NCBI GenBank assembly: GCA_963842525.1
Contig: CAWJGT010000034.1
Location: 512,001-576,000, forward strand
Length of the DNA stretch: 64,000 nt
Origin: an uncultured Holophagales bacterium
GTDB lineage: Bacteria; Acidobacteriota; Thermoanaerobaculia; Multivoradales; UBA5704
Reading direction: 5' to 3'
The notes below the pieces were generated by a model, which saw nothing but the letters and a program-made list of their open reading frames with translations, was not told the origin of the DNA and made no database searches. Positions within the stretch are counted from its first letter, which is position 1; each line of letters opens with the position of its first letter. Both the position numbers and the translations under genes were made by a program. Of the stretch, positions 13,507 to 19,682 are shown in pieces.

Positions 13507-13750
13507 CCGGCCCAACGGGCCGGGAGAACAGAGCCCAGGGATGAGGCCGCAGGCCGATTCCCTGGGACCCAACGGACCGCCACGATCATGCGGCCTGAAG
13601 GGCCGCGGGAGCCTTCACCAGGGAGCGGAGCCGTCTCGAACAAATCCTCTCGCGGCCCTTCAGGCCGCGGGGTAGATCGGTCTCCTGTGACCCAGGGCAT
13701 CGGCCTGTGGCCGAAGCCCTGGGCTCCGATCTCCCGGCCCGTTCGGCCGG
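13507..13750. repeat. REPIN: two inverted REP clusters without a transposase, same family as those flanking tnpA
   Basis: CCGGCCCAACGGGCCGGGAGA...GCCCAGGG...CGGCCTGAAGGGCCG, then the mirror image ending TCTCCCGGCCCGTTCGGCCGG. Confidence 0.8.
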
Positions 13751-13859
13751 TGGCGGTGCCCAGGTTATTACGTGGCAGGTCCTAAGCATTCCAGGCCCCT
13801 GGAAGGAACACCTCCGGCAGGTAAGCCGACACCTCTCCGGAGCTCATTGGCCGACATGA

Positions 13860-14078: not shown

Positions 14079-15575
14079 ATGAAGCGATTGCTTGAACTTT
14101 CCAGCGCAGAAGCCAGGAAACACTTCCTTAAGGCGAGCAGTTACTTCAAAGACGACCTGCCCTCCTATTTAAGTTTCGAGCCGATCCTGAACTCGGTGGA
14201 CGCCGCGCTTAATGGGGCAACGTACGCGGCAGTCCAAGCTCACTGTCCGAGCAACTTCCCGGGCGTCAACTACAGTTTCATGGCGAACAAGGACGGAAGA
14301 CTTGCATGGCGTCCCTATGAGCTGATTCATCCGGTCATCTATGTGTCTCTGGTAGATGTCATCTGCCAGCCGGAGAACTGGAAGCTGATTACTGATCGTC
14401 TATCCGAGTTCACCAAAGGCGTTGTTGACTGCTGCAGCGCCCCTGTGATGTCGCTCGACCACCAGAAGGATGTCGCAGCCCAGGTGAGGGGATGGTGGCA
14501 TAAAGTTGAGCAGCGATCTCTGGCTTACTCGTTGGAGTTTAGTCATGTCCTACAAACCGATGTGGTCGATTGCTACGGTTCGGTTTATACGCACAGCATT
14601 TCTTGGGCGCTACATGGACTACCCTACACCAAGGAGAACAAGCAGAAGAAATCTCTTGTTGGAAACAAGATCGACTCGCACATTCAGGCGAGTAGGTACG
14701 GCCAGACCAACGGTATCTGCCAAGGCTCCGTCCTCATGGACTTCGTTGCCGAAATCGTGCTGGGGTATGTGGACGAACTGATCAGCGCAGAAGTGCCGAA
14801 AGCGAACGATTTCCGGATCCTCCGCCACCGGGACGACTACCGAGTGTTTGCCAACAATGACGATCGCGCTGAAGGCATCCTTAAAATTATCAGTGACAAG
14901 CTGCGGATCGTAGGGATGAAGCTTGGAGTATCGAAGACGTTCCTGAGCAGGAACGTTGTTGAGGGATCGATCAAGGCGGACAAGCTGGCAGGCATCGAGT
15001 TGCAGGACCTTGGCGACGCGAATGCCAAGACCATTCAGAAGCAACTCCTGAGACTGCATGCGTTCGGGCAGCGGTTCCCCAATAGTGGCGCGTTGCGGCG
15101 CCTGGTTGCCGAACTGCATACCAGCATTACTGCGCAGACTGAAGCGCCAGACGATCTCGAAGTGCAGGTCGCAATCGCAACAGACATCGGCTTCGTCTCT
15201 CCGGCAACATTTCCTGCTGTTGCGGGCATTCTGAGTCATCTGATCTCGCTCGCCCCACAAGACAAGAAGTCTGTGCTCTGGTCAAAAGTGCGCAATAAGA
15301 TGGCTCGAGTCCCATACAACGGCTACCTGGAGATATGGCTTCAACGGGTGACGCAGCCAAAGGCAGTTGGGATCCAGTTTGATAGCACTGAGGCGATCTG
15401 TCGGATCGTGAATGGTGAAGCGGTCGATCTATGGGAGAACGGATGGATTGCATGCAAGAATGTCAAGGCGGCGGTCGATCCTTCAAAAATCGTGGTCGGG
15501 TCCGTGGAAGATGTTACTGAGGTCGTTCAGCCTGCGGAGGTCGAGCTATTTCAGCAGAATGCATGGGCATACTAA
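14079..15575 (+). CDS. Reverse transcriptase-like DNA polymerase, Abi-P2/AbiK-type anti-phage family
   Basis: NKDG..AWRP..LIHP, WW..EQRSL, TDVVDCYGSVYTHSISW, TNGICQGSVLMD..AE, LRHRDDYRVF (YxDD position), followed by a helical C-terminal domain. GC content is visibly lower than the flanks. The family call is from remembered similarity, not a search. Confidence 0.85.
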   Translation: MKRLLELSSAEARKHFLKASSYFKDDLPSYLSFEPILNSVDAALNGATYAAVQAHCPSNFPGVNYSFMANKDGRLAWRPYELIHPVIYVSLVDVICQPENWKLITDRLSEFTKGVVDCCSAPVMSLDHQKDVAAQVRGWWHKVEQRSLAYSLEFSHVLQTDVVDCYGSVYTHSISWALHGLPYTKENKQKKSLVGNKIDSHIQASRYGQTNGICQGSVLMDFVAEIVLGYVDELISAEVPKANDFRILRHRDDYRVFANNDDRAEGILKIISDKLRIVGMKLGVSKTFLSRNVVEGSIKADKLAGIELQDLGDANAKTIQKQLLRLHAFGQRFPNSGALRRLVAELHTSITAQTEAPDDLEVQVAIATDIGFVSPATFPAVAGILSHLISLAPQDKKSVLWSKVRNKMARVPYNGYLEIWLQRVTQPKAVGIQFDSTEAICRIVNGEAVDLWENGWIACKNVKAAVDPSKIVVGSVEDVTEVVQPAEVELFQQNAWAY

Positions 15576-16330
15576 GAGCGCCTAACAAAACCGGCCCAAC
15601 GGGCCGGGAGAGCATAGCCCAGGGCTGAGGCCGAAGGCCGATGCCCTGGGTTCACGGGCGCCACCTCCCGGCGGCCTGAAAGGCCGCGAGAGTCTTCAGT
15701 CCCACACGTAGCGCTCGTCAAATTCGATTTCATAAGCCTTGAGGAACGCACGGAGCTCCTCTTGAAACGACTTGACTCGATGATGCTCGCGCTGGTTGCG
15801 GATGTAGGCTCGAACGTCTTCGACCTGCGATTGGCTCACCGAGAATGCACCGAATCCCGCCTGCCAAAAGAAGCTCGCAAACTGCGGGCCTCGGCCCCGA
15901 AGCCAGTCGTTCGAGCTTTTCTTGAGGTGGCCGACAACGTCGCTCAGCGCCTCGGTCCGTGCGAGGAGAAACAGACCGTGCAAATGGTCGGGCTCGGTGT
16001 TGATTTCGATCGGGAGACAGCCGAGGCCTTTGAGCGTGCCGCCCATATAGGCATGGAGATCGGGGCGAATCTCGGCAGGCAGGGTTCGTTCGCGTTCCTT
16101 CGTCGAGAAAATGAGATGGACGTAGATTTTGGAGAGGGATTGAGCCATGGCGCCGGTGACTCCAGCACCTGTCTGCGGATCTGTCAAGGATCTGTCAAGC
16201 GGGGAGCTCTCGCGGCCTTTCAGGCCGCCCGGAGGTGGTGCCCATTGACCCAGGGCATCGGCCTTCGGCCTCAGCCCTGGGCTAGATTCTCCCGGCCCGT
16301 TGGGCCGGCAACCGGTTTTGTTAGGCGCTC
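15576..16330. mobile_element. TIR-bounded REP-tnpA cassette, copy 1
   Basis: 19-bp perfect TIR GAGCGCCTAACAAAACCGG / CCGGTTTTGTTAGGCGCTC; flanks TAA (the RT stop) and TTA; REP hairpins inside both ends. Confidence 0.85.
15696..16148 (-). CDS. tnpA: IS200/IS605-family Y1 HUH transposase (REP-associated), copy 1
   Basis: YVHLIFSTK, DHLH (HUH motif), WQAGFGAFSVS, YIRNQ (catalytic Tyr). Confidence 0.92.
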   Translation of the reverse strand: MAQSLSKIYVHLIFSTKERERTLPAEIRPDLHAYMGGTLKGLGCLPIEINTEPDHLHGLFLLARTEALSDVVGHLKKSSNDWLRGRGPQFASFFWQAGFGAFSVSQSQVEDVRAYIRNQREHHRVKSFQEELRAFLKAYEIEFDERYVWD

Positions 16331-16481
16331 TTAGCTACTGTCGGTCCGCCACGATCAAATCGCGGGAAGGCCACGCCGTAAGGTAGCTGATGATCGATGT
16401 CTCCAAGTACACAAGAGCAGCCAAGCTCCGAGACCACCACCTCGAAAGAGCTACGGCGCCGGTTCCAACACCCATGGGTTA
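16331..16481 (-). pseudogene. Permuted PIN (VapC-like) gene fragments between cassette copies 1 and 2
   Basis: Minus strand reads THGCWNRRRSSFEVVVSEL followed by VYLETSIISYLTAWPSRDLIVADRQ. Confidence 0.7.
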
Positions 16482-16669
16482 GAGCGCCTAAAAAATCCGG
16501 CCCAACGGGCCGGGAGAGCATAGCCCAGGGCTTCTATGTGGGCCACCGGTGTCAAGCGTCTCGGGGTGGTGGTTCGTCGTTTTCCCTTTCCTGGCCCCCC
16601 CTCCTGTCACCGGTTTTCTCGCTTCTTGGTTCTCAGTCCGTCTGGCGCTTGCCCGGAGTGTGCAGGGAC

Positions 16670-16855
16670 CTGGGGAGTCGTCCTTTCCAGCTTCTATCCG
16701 TGCTGACCTCTTTGGGTCAGGACACCAAATGCAGCATGCGCTGTCGAGCGACTCAGGCAAGCTCTCGGAGCGGCCCCATCTGAGAGAACGGTTCGGAAGC
16801 CGAACCAAGCCCTGGGCCGGGCACGCTCCACCAGTCGTTTCTCTCCGAGCTTTTT
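16670..16855 (-). ncRNA. Putative bridge/seek RNA of the IS110 element (target-binding and donor-binding loops)
   Basis: Guides match target (16808-16817, 16780-16784) and donor ends (16727-16732, 16691-16697); each guide pair flanks a hairpin inside a closing stem. RNA ends are approximate. Confidence 0.75.
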
Positions 16856-16864
16856 CCTCCCAGA

Positions 16865-18001
16865 TTACTTCGTCTTCAGCTCAGCACCCTCAGGAATCAC
16901 ACCGTAGTCCAGATAGCGCCACAGCGCGATCAGCAGCTTGCGGGCGAGGGCCACGATCCCCACCCGCCGAGATCGGCGGCTCCCAGGACCATAACGCTCC
17001 TGAAACCACAAGCTCAGGCGACTCTGCGGTTGGAAGCGCAACCAGCCCCAAGCGATCTCGATCGCCATCGCCCGGACCCGACGATTCCCCGCCTTGCTGA
17101 TCCCTTGTTCGTGGTTGACCGTGTCACCGCTCTGATAAGGCATCGGCGTCAGACCCGCCAAACCGGCCACCTCACGGCGGTTGCGGAACTGCCGCCAGCC
17201 GAAGAACTCCACCACGAACAGCCAACCACTGTTGCCTCCGATCCCCTTGAGCTCTTGCAGCCGCTGCACCTTCTCCGTCGCTTCCACGCTGGCCGTCCGG
17301 CGAAACCGCTCGAGCTCGGCAATCTGACTCTCCAGCACAGCCAGACGCTCGCCCTCTCGCCTCAAACGCTCCCGCAAGCTCGCCAGCAGCCTCTCGCCGT
17401 TCCACTGCCTCGCCTGATCCAGCTGCTGCAGAAAGCCCTTGCCGACTTTCACCCCCCGAGCCCCCACGCTGGCCAGCAGGCCCTTGATCCGATTGGTGTG
17501 GGCCGTGCGCTCCTGCTTCAGAGACTCAAGCTCCCGAGCCAGGTGACGCTCGTCCTCCTGCTCGGGGGTCGGCGCGTGCGCTACCCCGAACACCTTCTTC
17601 TCCCCGCGCTCGTAACGGATCAACAACGACAGCAACTTCTCCACGTCCACCCCATCCGTCTTGGCCCGGCGATGCCGCCGATTCACCTCGATGCTCGAGG
17701 AGTCCATGACAACGTTTTCCACTCCCTCCGACAGCAGGAACCGGTGGAGCCAGAATCCATCCCGTCCGGCCTCGTAGCAACTCACCACCCGAGCCGACTC
17801 CGGCACGCCAAGGCGATGTTTGGCCCGCGCGATCTCCAGCATCAGCCCGGCAAGGTCCCCGGCTGCAACTGTCCGCTGACTTGCCCTCCGTCCAGCCTCT
17901 ACACCAAACCCCAGCTTCCACTCGCTGGCGCCGAGCTCCAGGGCCATATGTAACACCGCCTCCGTTCGCGTAGACTCTGCAATGCGGGTTGTCTGGTTCA
18001 T
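16865..18001 (-). CDS. IS110-family recombinase/transposase
   Basis: RuvC-like ALELG, CYEAG, AKTDGVD; Tnp domain LAGLTPMPYQSG, ISKAGNRRVR, VALARKLL. Confidence 0.93.
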   Translation of the reverse strand: MNQTTRIAESTRTEAVLHMALELGASEWKLGFGVEAGRRASQRTVAAGDLAGLMLEIARAKHRLGVPESARVVSCYEAGRDGFWLHRFLLSEGVENVVMDSSSIEVNRRHRRAKTDGVDVEKLLSLLIRYERGEKKVFGVAHAPTPEQEDERHLARELESLKQERTAHTNRIKGLLASVGARGVKVGKGFLQQLDQARQWNGERLLASLRERLRREGERLAVLESQIAELERFRRTASVEATEKVQRLQELKGIGGNSGWLFVVEFFGWRQFRNRREVAGLAGLTPMPYQSGDTVNHEQGISKAGNRRVRAMAIEIAWGWLRFQPQSRLSLWFQERYGPGSRRSRRVGIVALARKLLIALWRYLDYGVIPEGAELKTK

Positions 18002-18156
18002 CGGGGTTCTCCTTTCTAACCGCTAAAGTTCCCCCGAAACATACAACCGGCGACCCGCTTTTGCATCCCCCGCCCTGCATAGCATCTGAGGCCGAAGGCC
18101 GATGCCCTGGGTTCACGGGCGCCACCTCCCGGCGGCCTGAAAGGCCGCGAGAGTCT

Positions 18157-18609
18157 TCAGTCCCACACGTAGCGCTCGTCAAATTCGATTTCATAAGCCT
18201 TGAGGAACGCACGGAGCTCCTCTTGAAACGACTTGACTCGATGATGCTCGCGCTGGTTGCGGATGTAGGCTCGAACGTCTTCGACCTGCGATTGGCTCAC
18301 CGAGAATGCACCGAATCCCGCCTGCCAAAAGAAGCTCGCAAACTGCGGGCCTCGGCCCCGAAGCCAGTCGTTCGAGCTTTTCTTGAGGTGGCCGACAACG
18401 TCGCTCAGCGCCTCGGTCCGTGCGAGGAGAAACAGACCGTGCAAATGGTCGGGCTCGGTGTTGATTTCGATCGGGAGACAGCCGAGGCCTTTGAGCGTGC
18501 CGCCCATGTAGGCATGGAGATCGGGGCGAATCTCGTCAGGCAGGGTTCGTTCGCGGTCCTTCGTCGAGAAGATGAGATGGACGTAGATTTTGGAGAGGGA
18601 TTGAGCCAT
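18157..18609 (-). CDS. tnpA: Y1 HUH transposase, copy 2
   Basis: Near-identical to 15696-16148. Confidence 0.92.
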   Translation of the reverse strand: MAQSLSKIYVHLIFSTKDRERTLPDEIRPDLHAYMGGTLKGLGCLPIEINTEPDHLHGLFLLARTEALSDVVGHLKKSSNDWLRGRGPQFASFFWQAGFGAFSVSQSQVEDVRAYIRNQREHHRVKSFQEELRAFLKAYEIEFDERYVWD

Positions 18610-18779
18610 GGCGCCGGTGACTCCAGCACCTGTCTGCGGATCTGTCAAGCGGGAGCTCTCGCGGCCTTTCAGGCCGCCCGGAGGTGGTGCCCGTTGACCC
18701 AGGGCATCGGCCTTCGGCCTCAGCCCTGGGCTAGATTCTCCCGGCCCGTTGGGCCGGCGGCCGGTTTTGTTAGGCGCTC

Positions 18780-18940
18780 TAAGCTGGGCTGGCGGTCCGC
18801 CACGATCAAATCGCGGGAAGGCCACGCCGTAAGGTAGCTGATGCTCGCATGTCTCCAAGTCACAAGATGGCAGCTCAAGCCTTCCGAGAGCAGCGGCACC
18901 TCGAAAGAGCTACGGCGCCGGTTCCACCACCCATGGGTTA
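18780..18940 (-). pseudogene. Permuted PIN gene fragments between cassette copies 2 and 3
   Basis: THGWWNRRRSSFEV...SISYLTAWPSRDLIVADRQ; a diverged copy of 16331-16481. Confidence 0.7.
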
Positions 18941-19682
18941 GAGCGCCTAACAAAACCGGCCCAACGGGCCGGGAGAGCATAGCCCAGGGCTGAGGCCGAA
19001 GGCCGATGCCCTGGGTTCACGGGCGCCACCTCCCGGCGGCCTGAAAGGCCGCGAGAGTCTTCAGTCCCACACGTAGCGCTCGTCAAATTCGATTTCATAA
19101 GCCTTGAGAAACGCACGGAGCTCCTCTTGAAACGACTTGACTCGATGATGCTCGCGCTGGTTGCGGATGTAGGCTCGAACGTCTTCGACCTGCGATTGGC
19201 TCACCGAGAATGCACCGAATCCCGCCTGCCAAAAGAAGCTCGCAAACTGCGGGCCTCGGCTCCGAAGCCAGTCGTTCGAGCTTTTCTTGAGGTGGCCGAC
19301 AACCTCGCTCAGCGACTCAGTCCGTGCGAGGAGAAAGAGACCGTGCAAATGGTCGGGCTCGGTGTTGATTTCGATCGGGAGACAGCCGAGGCCTTTGAGC
19401 GTGCCGCCCATATAGGCATGGAGATCGGGGCGAATCTCGGCAGGCAGGGTTCGTTCGCGTTCCTTCGTCGAGAAAATGAGATGGACGTAGATTTTGGAGA
19501 GGATTGAGCCATGACGCCGGTGACTCCAGCACCTGTCTGCGGAGCTGTCAAGCGGGAGCTCTCGCGGCCTTTCAGGCCGCCCGGAGGTGGCGCCCGTTGA
19601 CCCAGGGCATCGGCCTTCGGCCTCAGCCCTGGGCTAGATTCTCCCGGCCCGTTGGGCCGGCAACCGGTTTTGTCAGGCGCTC
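18941..19682. mobile_element. TIR-bounded REP-tnpA cassette, copy 3
   Basis: Same TIRs; flanked by a TTA direct repeat (18938-18940 and 19683-19685). Confidence 0.85.
19061..19512 (-). pseudogene. tnpA: Y1 HUH transposase, copy 3, with a 1-nt deletion near 19500
   Basis: 452 nt versus 453 nt; GGAGAGGATT here versus GGAGAGGGATT in the other copies (could be a read error). Confidence 0.8.

Follow-up and report, generated by a model that had tools for sequence, protein, structure and literature searches.

The 64,000-nt stretch analysed here (the window) is part of contig CAWJGT010000034.1 (positions 512,001 to 576,000) of an uncultured Holophagales bacterium (GenBank assembly GCA_963842525.1). 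At 16533-18087 on the minus strand, it contains a 1555-bp insertion sequence (IS) of the IS110 family, which is very probably an intact, recently active element with an IS1111-like layout whose right end encodes a two-loop bridge (seek) RNA of ~185-225 nt. The host genome (9.95 Mb in 34 contigs, 67.8% G+C) carries three subfamilies of this element, A, B, and C. The target guides of the RNA are rewritten in each subfamily to suit its own flanks, and the scaffold and donor guides stay constant.

The element splits a repetitive extragenic palindromic (REP) sequence into GCCCAGGGCT and GAGGCCGAAGGCCGATGCCCTGGG, with CT on both sides, exactly where the preliminary description of the window had placed it. 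The left flank GCCCAGGGCT covers 16523-16532 of the plus strand. At the opposite terminus, GCATCT (18082-18087) runs into CTGAG (18086-18090). The boundaries are ambiguous because the 2-nt core is shared, and 16531-18085 is an equivalent description. On the minus strand, the recombinase open reading frame (ORF) is followed by ~330 nt of non-coding sequence. The element and its flanks comprise the following features:

16483-16532, plus strand: left half of the interrupted REP, the extent of the blastn match with an intact REP unit.
16523-16530, plus strand: left target GCCCAGGG, followed by the core CT at 16531-16532.
16533-18087, minus strand: IS110-family insertion sequence, 1555 bp, with five full copies of ~100% identity in the genome that have like ends and REP flanks.
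16534-16543, plus strand: subterminal inverted repeat on the right-end side, CTATGTGGGC, compared with 18072-18082.
16865-18001, minus strand: recombinase gene, 378 residues, or 360 residues from an alternative start at Met19.
18072-18087, plus strand: left end in gene sense, made up of the subterminal repeat GCCCTGCATAG (18072-18082), the left donor GCAT (18082-18085), and a copy of the core CT (18086-18087).
18088-18126, plus strand: right half of the interrupted REP (blastn match 18086-18126), starting with the right target GAG at 18088-18090.

The two subterminal repeats agree in 8 of 11 positions in their best 11-nt window, compared with 5-9 of 11 among the 31 elements examined for this feature. 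The distance from terminus to repeat, core included, is 5 nt on the left and 3 nt on the right.

The protein belongs to the IS110 family, as the preliminary description had it. It matches the NCBIfam model NF033542, "IS110 family RNA-guided transposase", over residues 61-366 with 183 bits against a cut-off of 140, and Pfam PF02371 with 63.1 bits against a cut-off of 21.3. The N-terminal PF01548 match (22.3 bits) lies under its 29-bit cut-off. Sequence similarity to the solved IS621 and ISCro4 proteins is found in the C-terminal domain only (E 2.6e-5 and 1.7e-6, respectively), and the best full-length Foldseek matches of the predicted structure are these same two proteins, 8wt9 (IS621, E 2.7e-9) and 9t56 (ISCro4, E 2.8e-9), over ~370 columns. 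Residues E77, D116, D119, S291, and G292 are invariant in 12 relatives (63-90% identity), and the first acidic position, E22 here, is D in two of the 12. S291 aligns with the Ser of "YESG" in IS621, and the correspondence with IS621 D11/E60/D102/D105/S241 was drawn by motif, without superposition. The C-terminal domain carries a GL-P----SG motif (GLTPMPYQSG). Relatives of the recombinase number at least 8000 at E ≤ 1e-20. In a tblastn search against 72,556 plasmids, only 463 records match at E 1e-5. The nearest named relatives found are ISMno20 (48% identical) and ISRel9 (42% identical).

The guide RNA was delimited by comparison with related loci. A scan of one genome per species gave 559 encoding stretches, and the best 80 loci (50-83% identity) were used; these 80 come from Chloroflexota, Acidobacteriota, Gemmatimonadota, Planctomycetota, Burkholderiales, and others. 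Alignment A3 holds 43 RNAs, namely 40 distinct downstream regions with two exact scaffold motifs plus subfamilies A, B, and C, and the covariance model R1 was built from it. Within A3, AGAUGGGG is invariant and CACGGAUAGAAG invariant or nearly so, and the guide positions are free. In the window, the R1 match begins 16 nt past the recombinase stop codon on the gene strand and has the following parts:

16624-16849, minus strand: bridge/seek RNA, whole covariance-model match (142 bits, E 6.5e-41), the sole R1 match in the window.
16819-16829, minus strand: 5' strand of the target-loop closing stem (GGAGCG, a bulged U, GCCC), paired by RNAalifold, with GGAGCG at 16829-16824.
16808-16817, minus strand: 5' target guide GCCCAGGGCU, matching plus-strand 16523-16532 in 10 of 10 positions.
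16790-16806, minus strand: internal hairpin of the target loop, GGUUCGG CUU CCGAACC (helix 3), with both-side changes in five of six pairs.
16777-16784, minus strand: 3' target guide CUC, core AG, and AUG, the reverse complement of plus-strand CATCTGAG at 18083-18090; CTCAG reads at 16784-16780.
16767-16776, minus strand: 3' strand of the target-loop closing stem (GGGC CGCUCC), paired by RNAalifold and structure counts, with CGCTCC at 16772-16767.
16756-16762, minus strand: 5' strand of the long-range stem of the donor half, GCUUGCC, pairing with 16653-16647.
16729-16732, minus strand: left donor guide GCAU, identical to plus-strand GCAT at 18082-18085.
16700-16725, minus strand: donor-loop hairpin (GUG ... 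CUGACC/GGUCAG ... CAC; helix 6), with CTGACC at 16720-16715 and GGTCAG at 16708-16703.
16690-16697, minus strand: right donor guide AUAGA, core AG, and one handshake-like base C, the complement of plus-strand GCTTCTAT at 16530-16537.
16647-16653, minus strand: 3' strand of the long-range stem, GGCAAGC, paired by RNAalifold and structure counts.

The 3' non-coding end thus holds the two-loop guide RNA of the preliminary description, with all four guide segments where that description had read them. The 5' target guide is identical to the plus strand at 16523-16532 and therefore pairs with the opposite strand; a repeat search recovers this relation as an 11-nt, 100% complementary inverted match between 16523-16533 and 16807-16817. 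The AU that follows the core AG of the target loop faces the invariant AT ending the left donor, as a handshake-like pair. The right donor segment with its core, ATAGAAG at 16697-16691, is invariant in the 43 RNAs. The donor half is closed by the long-range GCUUGCC/GGCAAGC stem and holds conserved hairpins. Two details of the second module were revised. Its stem had been given as GAGUCG/CGACUC; these strands exist in this copy (GAGTCG at 16754-16749, CGACTC at 16680-16675), but they are eroded in subfamilies B and C. As a conserved closing helix of the donor half this stem was therefore rejected, being specific to subfamily A, and it was left out of the family-wide helix scoring; GCUUGCC/GGCAAGC recurs in relatives instead. 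The left donor guide had been read as GCAUUU. Its first four nucleotides, GCAU, stand, but the UU that follows (16728-16727) varies freely among relatives and has no conserved core pairing.

The decisive evidence that the guides fit their targets comes from the three subfamilies of this genome. Subfamily A has five full copies of ~100% identity, one truncated copy, and one 56-nt remnant. Two copies make up subfamily B, at 90% DNA and 93% protein identity to A, and four copies make up the more distant subfamily C (77% DNA and 78% protein identity to A). The ends TCTATGTGG...GCATAGCATCT are common to all three, as are the segments GCAUUU and AUAGAAG on the donor side. However, the targets of A, B, and C differ, reading GCCCAGGGCT then GAG, GGGCGGAGCT then GAG, and GCGCCAGGCT then TTA, respectively. 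When the non-coding regions are aligned, GCCCAGGGCU in A, GGGCGGAGCU in B, and GCGCCAGGCU in C occupy the place of the 5' target guide, and the 3' target guides that precede the constant AG are CUC, CUC, and UAA, facing right flanks GAG, GAG, and TTA. Each subfamily matches its own flank in 10 of 10 positions with the 5' guide and in three of three with the 3' guide; one C copy sits at a variant site and matches 8 of 10. The guide-flank match is therefore not due to chance, because there are three subfamilies with three targets and each guide fits its own flank. R1 has exactly 12 matches in the genome, all of them inside element copies and none apart from an element.

Individual copies show some further peculiarities. 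One A copy (G000:C11:201267-202822) is 1 nt longer and carries a frameshift, so that its longest ORF spans 325 residues from an internal Met. The two B copies (G000:C23:156824-158399 and 167721-169296) lie 10.9 kb apart, and their flanks are alike at ~80-90% as judged by eye. The genome contains only five exact empty B sites, and the sequence that B targets may itself be repeated or duplicated.

Guide-target covariation among the relatives, a test proposed in the preliminary description, is strongly positive, as it is within the genome. The right-end junction could be found in 36 elements, and the left end in 35 of 43, 33 of them distinct. In all four guide tests, none of 10,000 permutations reached the observed value. 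The 5' target guide agrees with the 8 nt of right-end flank beyond the core in a mean of 6.47 positions (n = 36), compared with 3.16 in mismatched pairs; 8 nt agree in 10 elements, 7 in nine, 6 in nine, 5 in four, and 4 in four. For the 3' target guide and the 3 nt of flank beside the core (n = 33), all three positions match in 22 elements, two in seven, and one in four (mean 2.55 versus 0.86). In the left donor guide (NNAU), two positions are variable; 27 of 33 elements match the left end at both, five at one, and one at neither. Finally, the handshake base after the right-donor core corresponds to the first base of the target flank in 26 of 36 elements. Kinship among the loci inflates the permutation tests somewhat. 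Close relatives with different guides and flanks (for example, L012/L013 or L064/L072/L087) are nevertheless informative cases despite this kinship.

These data bear on the view that the internal matches are functionless, having arisen by chance or as a captured REP fragment. Short G+C-rich matches are indeed commoner in a REP-rich genome of 67.8% G+C. Yet the 10-mer GCCCAGGGCT is expected just 0.57 times in the whole window and occurs eight times, a number that none of 100 shuffles reached; the eight occurrences are seven REP copies and the one guide inside the element. The same scaffold position holds different 10-mers in B, in C, and in the 36 elements, each fitting its own flank. The subfamily guides and the covariation of the 36 elements thus already contradict this view, which is exceedingly improbable.

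The structure of the RNA is conserved together with its guides. Of the 80 loci, 76 have an R1 match on the gene strand, downstream of the recombinase gene; L037, L049, L052, and L065 have no match at E 0.001. Helices 1 and 2, which form the target-loop closing stem, show compensatory changes in 9 of 10 pairs. Helix 4 (GCUUGCC/GGCAAGC) has both-side changes in all five pairs, yet only 71.7% of its cells are paired, and in helix 6 the cells are paired at 96.7%, with both-side changes in six of eight pairs. Overall, both sides change in 27 of 33 pairs, and the covariation score of 0.376 compares with at most 0.147 when the partners are slid. Paired cells amount to 82.4%, versus 70.6% in shuffles, and none of 500 shuffles reached the observed values. 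The alignment is model-fitted and leans to R1, and its register is off in the outer stems, where 65% and 72% of cells are paired. On the gene-sense strand, G-U pairs (232) exceed A-C pairs (98), and this excess favours a fold of that strand.

The strand preference is also relevant to whether the segments act as RNA. They could instead act as DNA, for example within a folded single-stranded element end as in IS200/IS605-type elements, and guide-flank covariation alone cannot tell RNA from DNA; moreover, no transcript of the RNA was seen in the public-run contigs. However, the recombinase family has members shown to use RNA (Durrant et al., 2024, PMC11208160; Siddiquee et al., 2024, PMC11187229), the guides sit 160-290 nt inside the element, away from its tip, and the G-U excess lies on the gene-sense strand. 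A DNA-based role is thus very unlikely.

R1 covers only the closer clade, because the loci of ISMno20 and ISRel9 have no R1 match even with filters off (best E 0.27 and 0.72), whereas a Cupriavidus plasmid copy of 53% identity is matched with 104 bits. No Rfam 15 family matches the bridge RNA at E up to 1. Two loci contain more than one RNA match. In L012 (576-792 and 3162-3378), there are seemingly two tandem element copies with a short target remnant between them. In L082 (1586-1818 and 2002-2234), an inverted duplication containing N lies by the right end and is probably an assembly fault; its second match was not used.

Several observations, set out in this and the following paragraph, weigh against a two-loop bridge RNA. 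Guide-flank matches are imperfect at some loci, reaching only 4 of 8 in 4 of 36 loci for the 5' target guide and 1 of 3 in 4 of 33 for the 3' guide. In many elements, the 5' target guide does not extend to the core. The bases of the left donor guide at the core positions are CT in only 4 of 33 relatives; the others are TG in six, TT in five, AG in four, GT in four, TA in three, GA in three, CG in two, AC in one, and CC in one. Since these bases vary and the 5' target guide falls short, reliable reading of the core in this clade is left to the AG of the 3' guides. Neither the right donor guide AUAGAAG nor the right end varies, so their pairing is argued from conservation and can show no covariation. 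This invariance favours a rival arrangement, in which only the first module would guide, as a short seekRNA that chooses the target, the protein would read the ends through the subterminal repeats, and the donor loop would be scaffold. The left donor guide is only 4 nt long and its two core-position bases are mostly unpaired, and seekRNAs of 82-96 nt with target matches are described as predominating on the protein (Siddiquee et al., 2024, PMC11187229). The covariation of the donor segments points the other way. The left donor guide tracks the left end, and the base after the right-donor core tracks the target flank, in the proportions and against the permutations given above; the latter is hard to explain unless the right donor segment meets DNA during strand exchange. 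An RNA that guides through its first module only is therefore unlikely, and two guiding loops remain the preferred reading.

Sampling, folding, and expression add further points on the same side. The A3 RNAs were chosen by exact scaffold motifs from the 80 loci, and many are interrelated. The minimum-free-energy fold of 16660-16864, a check that the preliminary description had proposed, came out negative, being no stabler than shuffles (z = -0.75; 44 of 200 fold as well or better). Fold energy was consequently dropped as evidence, and structural support comes from covariation instead. The AlphaFold model of the recombinase is modest, with a predicted local distance difference test (pLDDT) score of 67, a predicted template modelling (pTM) score of 0.40, and Foldseek template modelling scores of 0.35-0.40. 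Contigs of two metatranscriptome runs (X19 and X20) fall only within 16916-17863, inside the recombinase ORF. A scan of 16450-18200 gave no sigma-70-type promoter, and hence none inside the integrated element. The public-run data consist of contigs only, from four runs, of which X3 and X18 were labelled RNA by guess and may be DNA. Joints in X3 and X18 that skip ~1555 nt were rejected as evidence of excision, because intact REP copies would give the same joints.

A promoter may nevertheless form when the element circularizes. An outward-facing box lies close to the right end:

16550-16555, minus strand: TTGACA, candidate -35 box of a putative circle-junction promoter.

TTGACn occurs near the right end, facing outward, in 37 of 38 elements, and in the circle junction its spacing to a left-end GATNNT would be 17-18 nt in 29 of 38. 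Judging from these motifs, a junction promoter of the form TTGACA-N17/18-GATNNT may start transcription in the circle. The spacing fits the junction-promoter model described for the IS110 family (Pares-Guillen et al., 2025, PMC12288879).

The mechanism that we infer, including transcription, RNA-protein binding, circle formation, and the catalytic steps, would proceed as follows. In gene sense, the element is made up of a short left end, the recombinase gene, and a long right end with the bridge (seek) RNA. The 5' side of the target loop, GCCCAGGGCU, would pair with one strand of the REP target to the left of the CT core, and the 3' side, CUC-AG, with the other strand to the right of the core. 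The GCAU and AUAGA-AG segments of the donor loop would read both ends of the excised, circularized element in the same two-strand fashion. Taking the CT strand (the plus strand of the window) as the top strand, the left pairings would cover the left target GCCCAGGG(CT) and the left donor GCAT, and the right pairings would cover CT-GAG in the target and CT-TCTAT in the donor. Immediately 3' of the 3' guides, one or two bases (AU and C) would complement the non-cognate left parts in a handshake-like manner. The recombinase, with its presumed DEDD and Ser residues, would then use the RNA to join the circle junction to a REP and swap strands at CT, giving insertion without duplication.

The target of subfamily A is a genuine REP, as the preliminary description had it. 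It is a short palindromic repeat with many intergenic copies and is associated with ORFs for Y1 transposases. The genome holds ~40-54 REP copies (54 blastn matches, 40 of them of at least 60 nt), and exact cognate sites number 13 in 9.95 Mb, compared with 1.67 expected from composition. Within the window, the 13-mer target has six matches at up to one mismatch, compared with 0.33 expected. All five empty targets listed in that description are exact:

15617-15629, plus strand: empty cognate target GCCCAGGGCTGAG.
16270-16282, minus strand: empty target.
18719-18731, minus strand: empty target.
18982-18994, plus strand: empty target.
19622-19634, minus strand: empty target.

Three IS200-like Y1 transposase ORFs (Pfam PF01797) lie nearby, all on the minus strand, at 15696-16187, 18157-18858, and 19061-19411. 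Each is bracketed by inverted (plus and minus) REP copies, forming units at 15577-16308, 16483-18757 (with the IS inside), and 18942-19660, and the IS is inserted in the left REP of the middle unit. We take these units to be a tandem cluster of the REP/REP-associated tyrosine transposase (RAYT), or REPtron-like, arrangement. Five of the 13 exact cognate sites fall in this window because the three Y1 ORFs are located here, each between inverted REP copies. The targets of subfamily C belong to a different hairpin repeat, for which the genome has 19 and 22 exact sites.

The surroundings of the repeats include several other features. The third PF01797 ORF (19061-19411) matches profile positions 41-121 only and may be truncated. 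The first REP hairpin, CCGGCCCGTTGGGCCGG at 16497-16513 (minus strand), is followed by ATTTTTT and resembles a terminator just past the right end of the IS in gene sense. The REP copies at 16498-16542, 15592-15629, and 18957-18994 give weak minus-strand matches to the Rfam family Acido-Lenti-1 (RF01687), at 19-20 bits and thus below the gathering threshold of 37; going by these sub-threshold matches, Acido-Lenti-1 may be related to REP-type repeats of Acidobacteriota. A 498-residue ORF with a reverse-transcriptase domain (PF00078, 36 bits) lies at 14079-15575 on the plus strand, between REP copies at 13507-13751 and 15577-15665.

The preliminary description regarded the 3'-encoded guide as a new kind of system. 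This claim fails, because a guide RNA downstream of the gene is already described for IS1111-type elements in both 2024 papers. Bridge RNAs are predicted in the right end of 93.0% of IS1111-group elements (Durrant et al., 2024, PMC11208160), and experiments are reported in which the downstream non-coding region of IS1111-type elements yields a transposase-bound, programmable seekRNA (Siddiquee et al., 2024, PMC11187229). The element resembles the IS1111 group (ISEc11, ISPa11, ISKpn4, ISPst6) in the position of its long non-coding region and RNA, which follow the recombinase gene, and in its subterminal inverted repeats and C-terminal GL-P----SG motif. The gene-sense order of the guides, with the top-strand complement first and the bottom-strand match second, also agrees with that described for the IS1111-type seekRNA (PMC11187229). 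Some members of the group, such as ISPa11, likewise target REPs or other repeats, and close relatives re-target by swaps of guide bases, as in the natural re-targeting described between ISEc11 and ISXne4 (PMC11187229). However, the recombinase has 360-378 residues here rather than the stated 330-350, the subterminal repeat is short and imperfect (8 of 11) rather than 11-13 bp and perfect or nearly so, and the terminal extensions measure ~3-5 bp (left) and 1-3 bp (right) rather than 7 and 3. To judge by the sequence, the element is thus not a textbook IS1111, differing in repeat, terminal extensions, and protein length.

With IS621 and ISCro4, the element shares two internal loops, the target loop lying 5' of the donor loop, as well as the CT core, REP targets, and a DEDD-plus-Ser recombinase fold. 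Its two-strand guide layout is that described for IS621 (Durrant et al., 2024, PMC11208160), and the handshake bases just 3' of the right guides resemble the handshake guides of IS621 (Hiraizumi et al., 2024, PMC11208158). Unlike in IS621 and ISCro4, the RNA is located downstream and not upstream of the gene, the left donor guide is 4 nt long, the donor half has extra hairpins, and R1 is a different scaffold. Additionally, the 5' guides often miss the core, whereas the core is described as part of all four pairings in IS621 (PMC11208160).

ISPpu9 and ISPpu10 of Pseudomonas putida provide another parallel, being described as inserting specifically into REPs in multiple copies and recombining at an AG dinucleotide in gene sense, or CT on the other strand (Pares-Guillen et al., 2025, PMC12288879). 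In that account, ISPpu9 is placed in the IS110 group, and its downstream RNA, Ssr9, is dispensable for transposition and also occurs alone. In contrast to Ssr9, all 12 RNA copies of the present genome lie inside elements and carry guides.

Whether these differences amount to a separate group is a tentative matter. The elements of Acidobacteriota, Chloroflexota, Gemmatimonadota, Planctomycetota, and Burkholderiales might form an undescribed multi-phylum lineage of bridge recombinases that stands between the IS110 and IS1111 groups, a proposal we hold with less than even confidence. The traits that may be intermediate are a 3' RNA with its own scaffold, short imperfect repeats, a protein of 360-378 residues, a 4-nt left donor guide, core reading by the 3' guides only, and a single-base handshake. 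Literature searches for ISRel9, ISMno20, and ISBxe found no paper, and found ISCARN28 and ISAzs32 only in the Durrant paper and its preprint. If the lineage is indeed separate, core pairing by the left guides would be dispensable, and the clade would offer a compact, naturally re-targeted system with three specificities in one genome.

The findings leave the established view of how such elements work unchanged. The genome of this soil bacterium provides a clean natural demonstration of programmability, in which three versions of one element, with only the target guides rewritten, address three repeat families. The covariance model and the guide rules for this multi-phylum clade should aid the annotation and mining of programmable recombinases.

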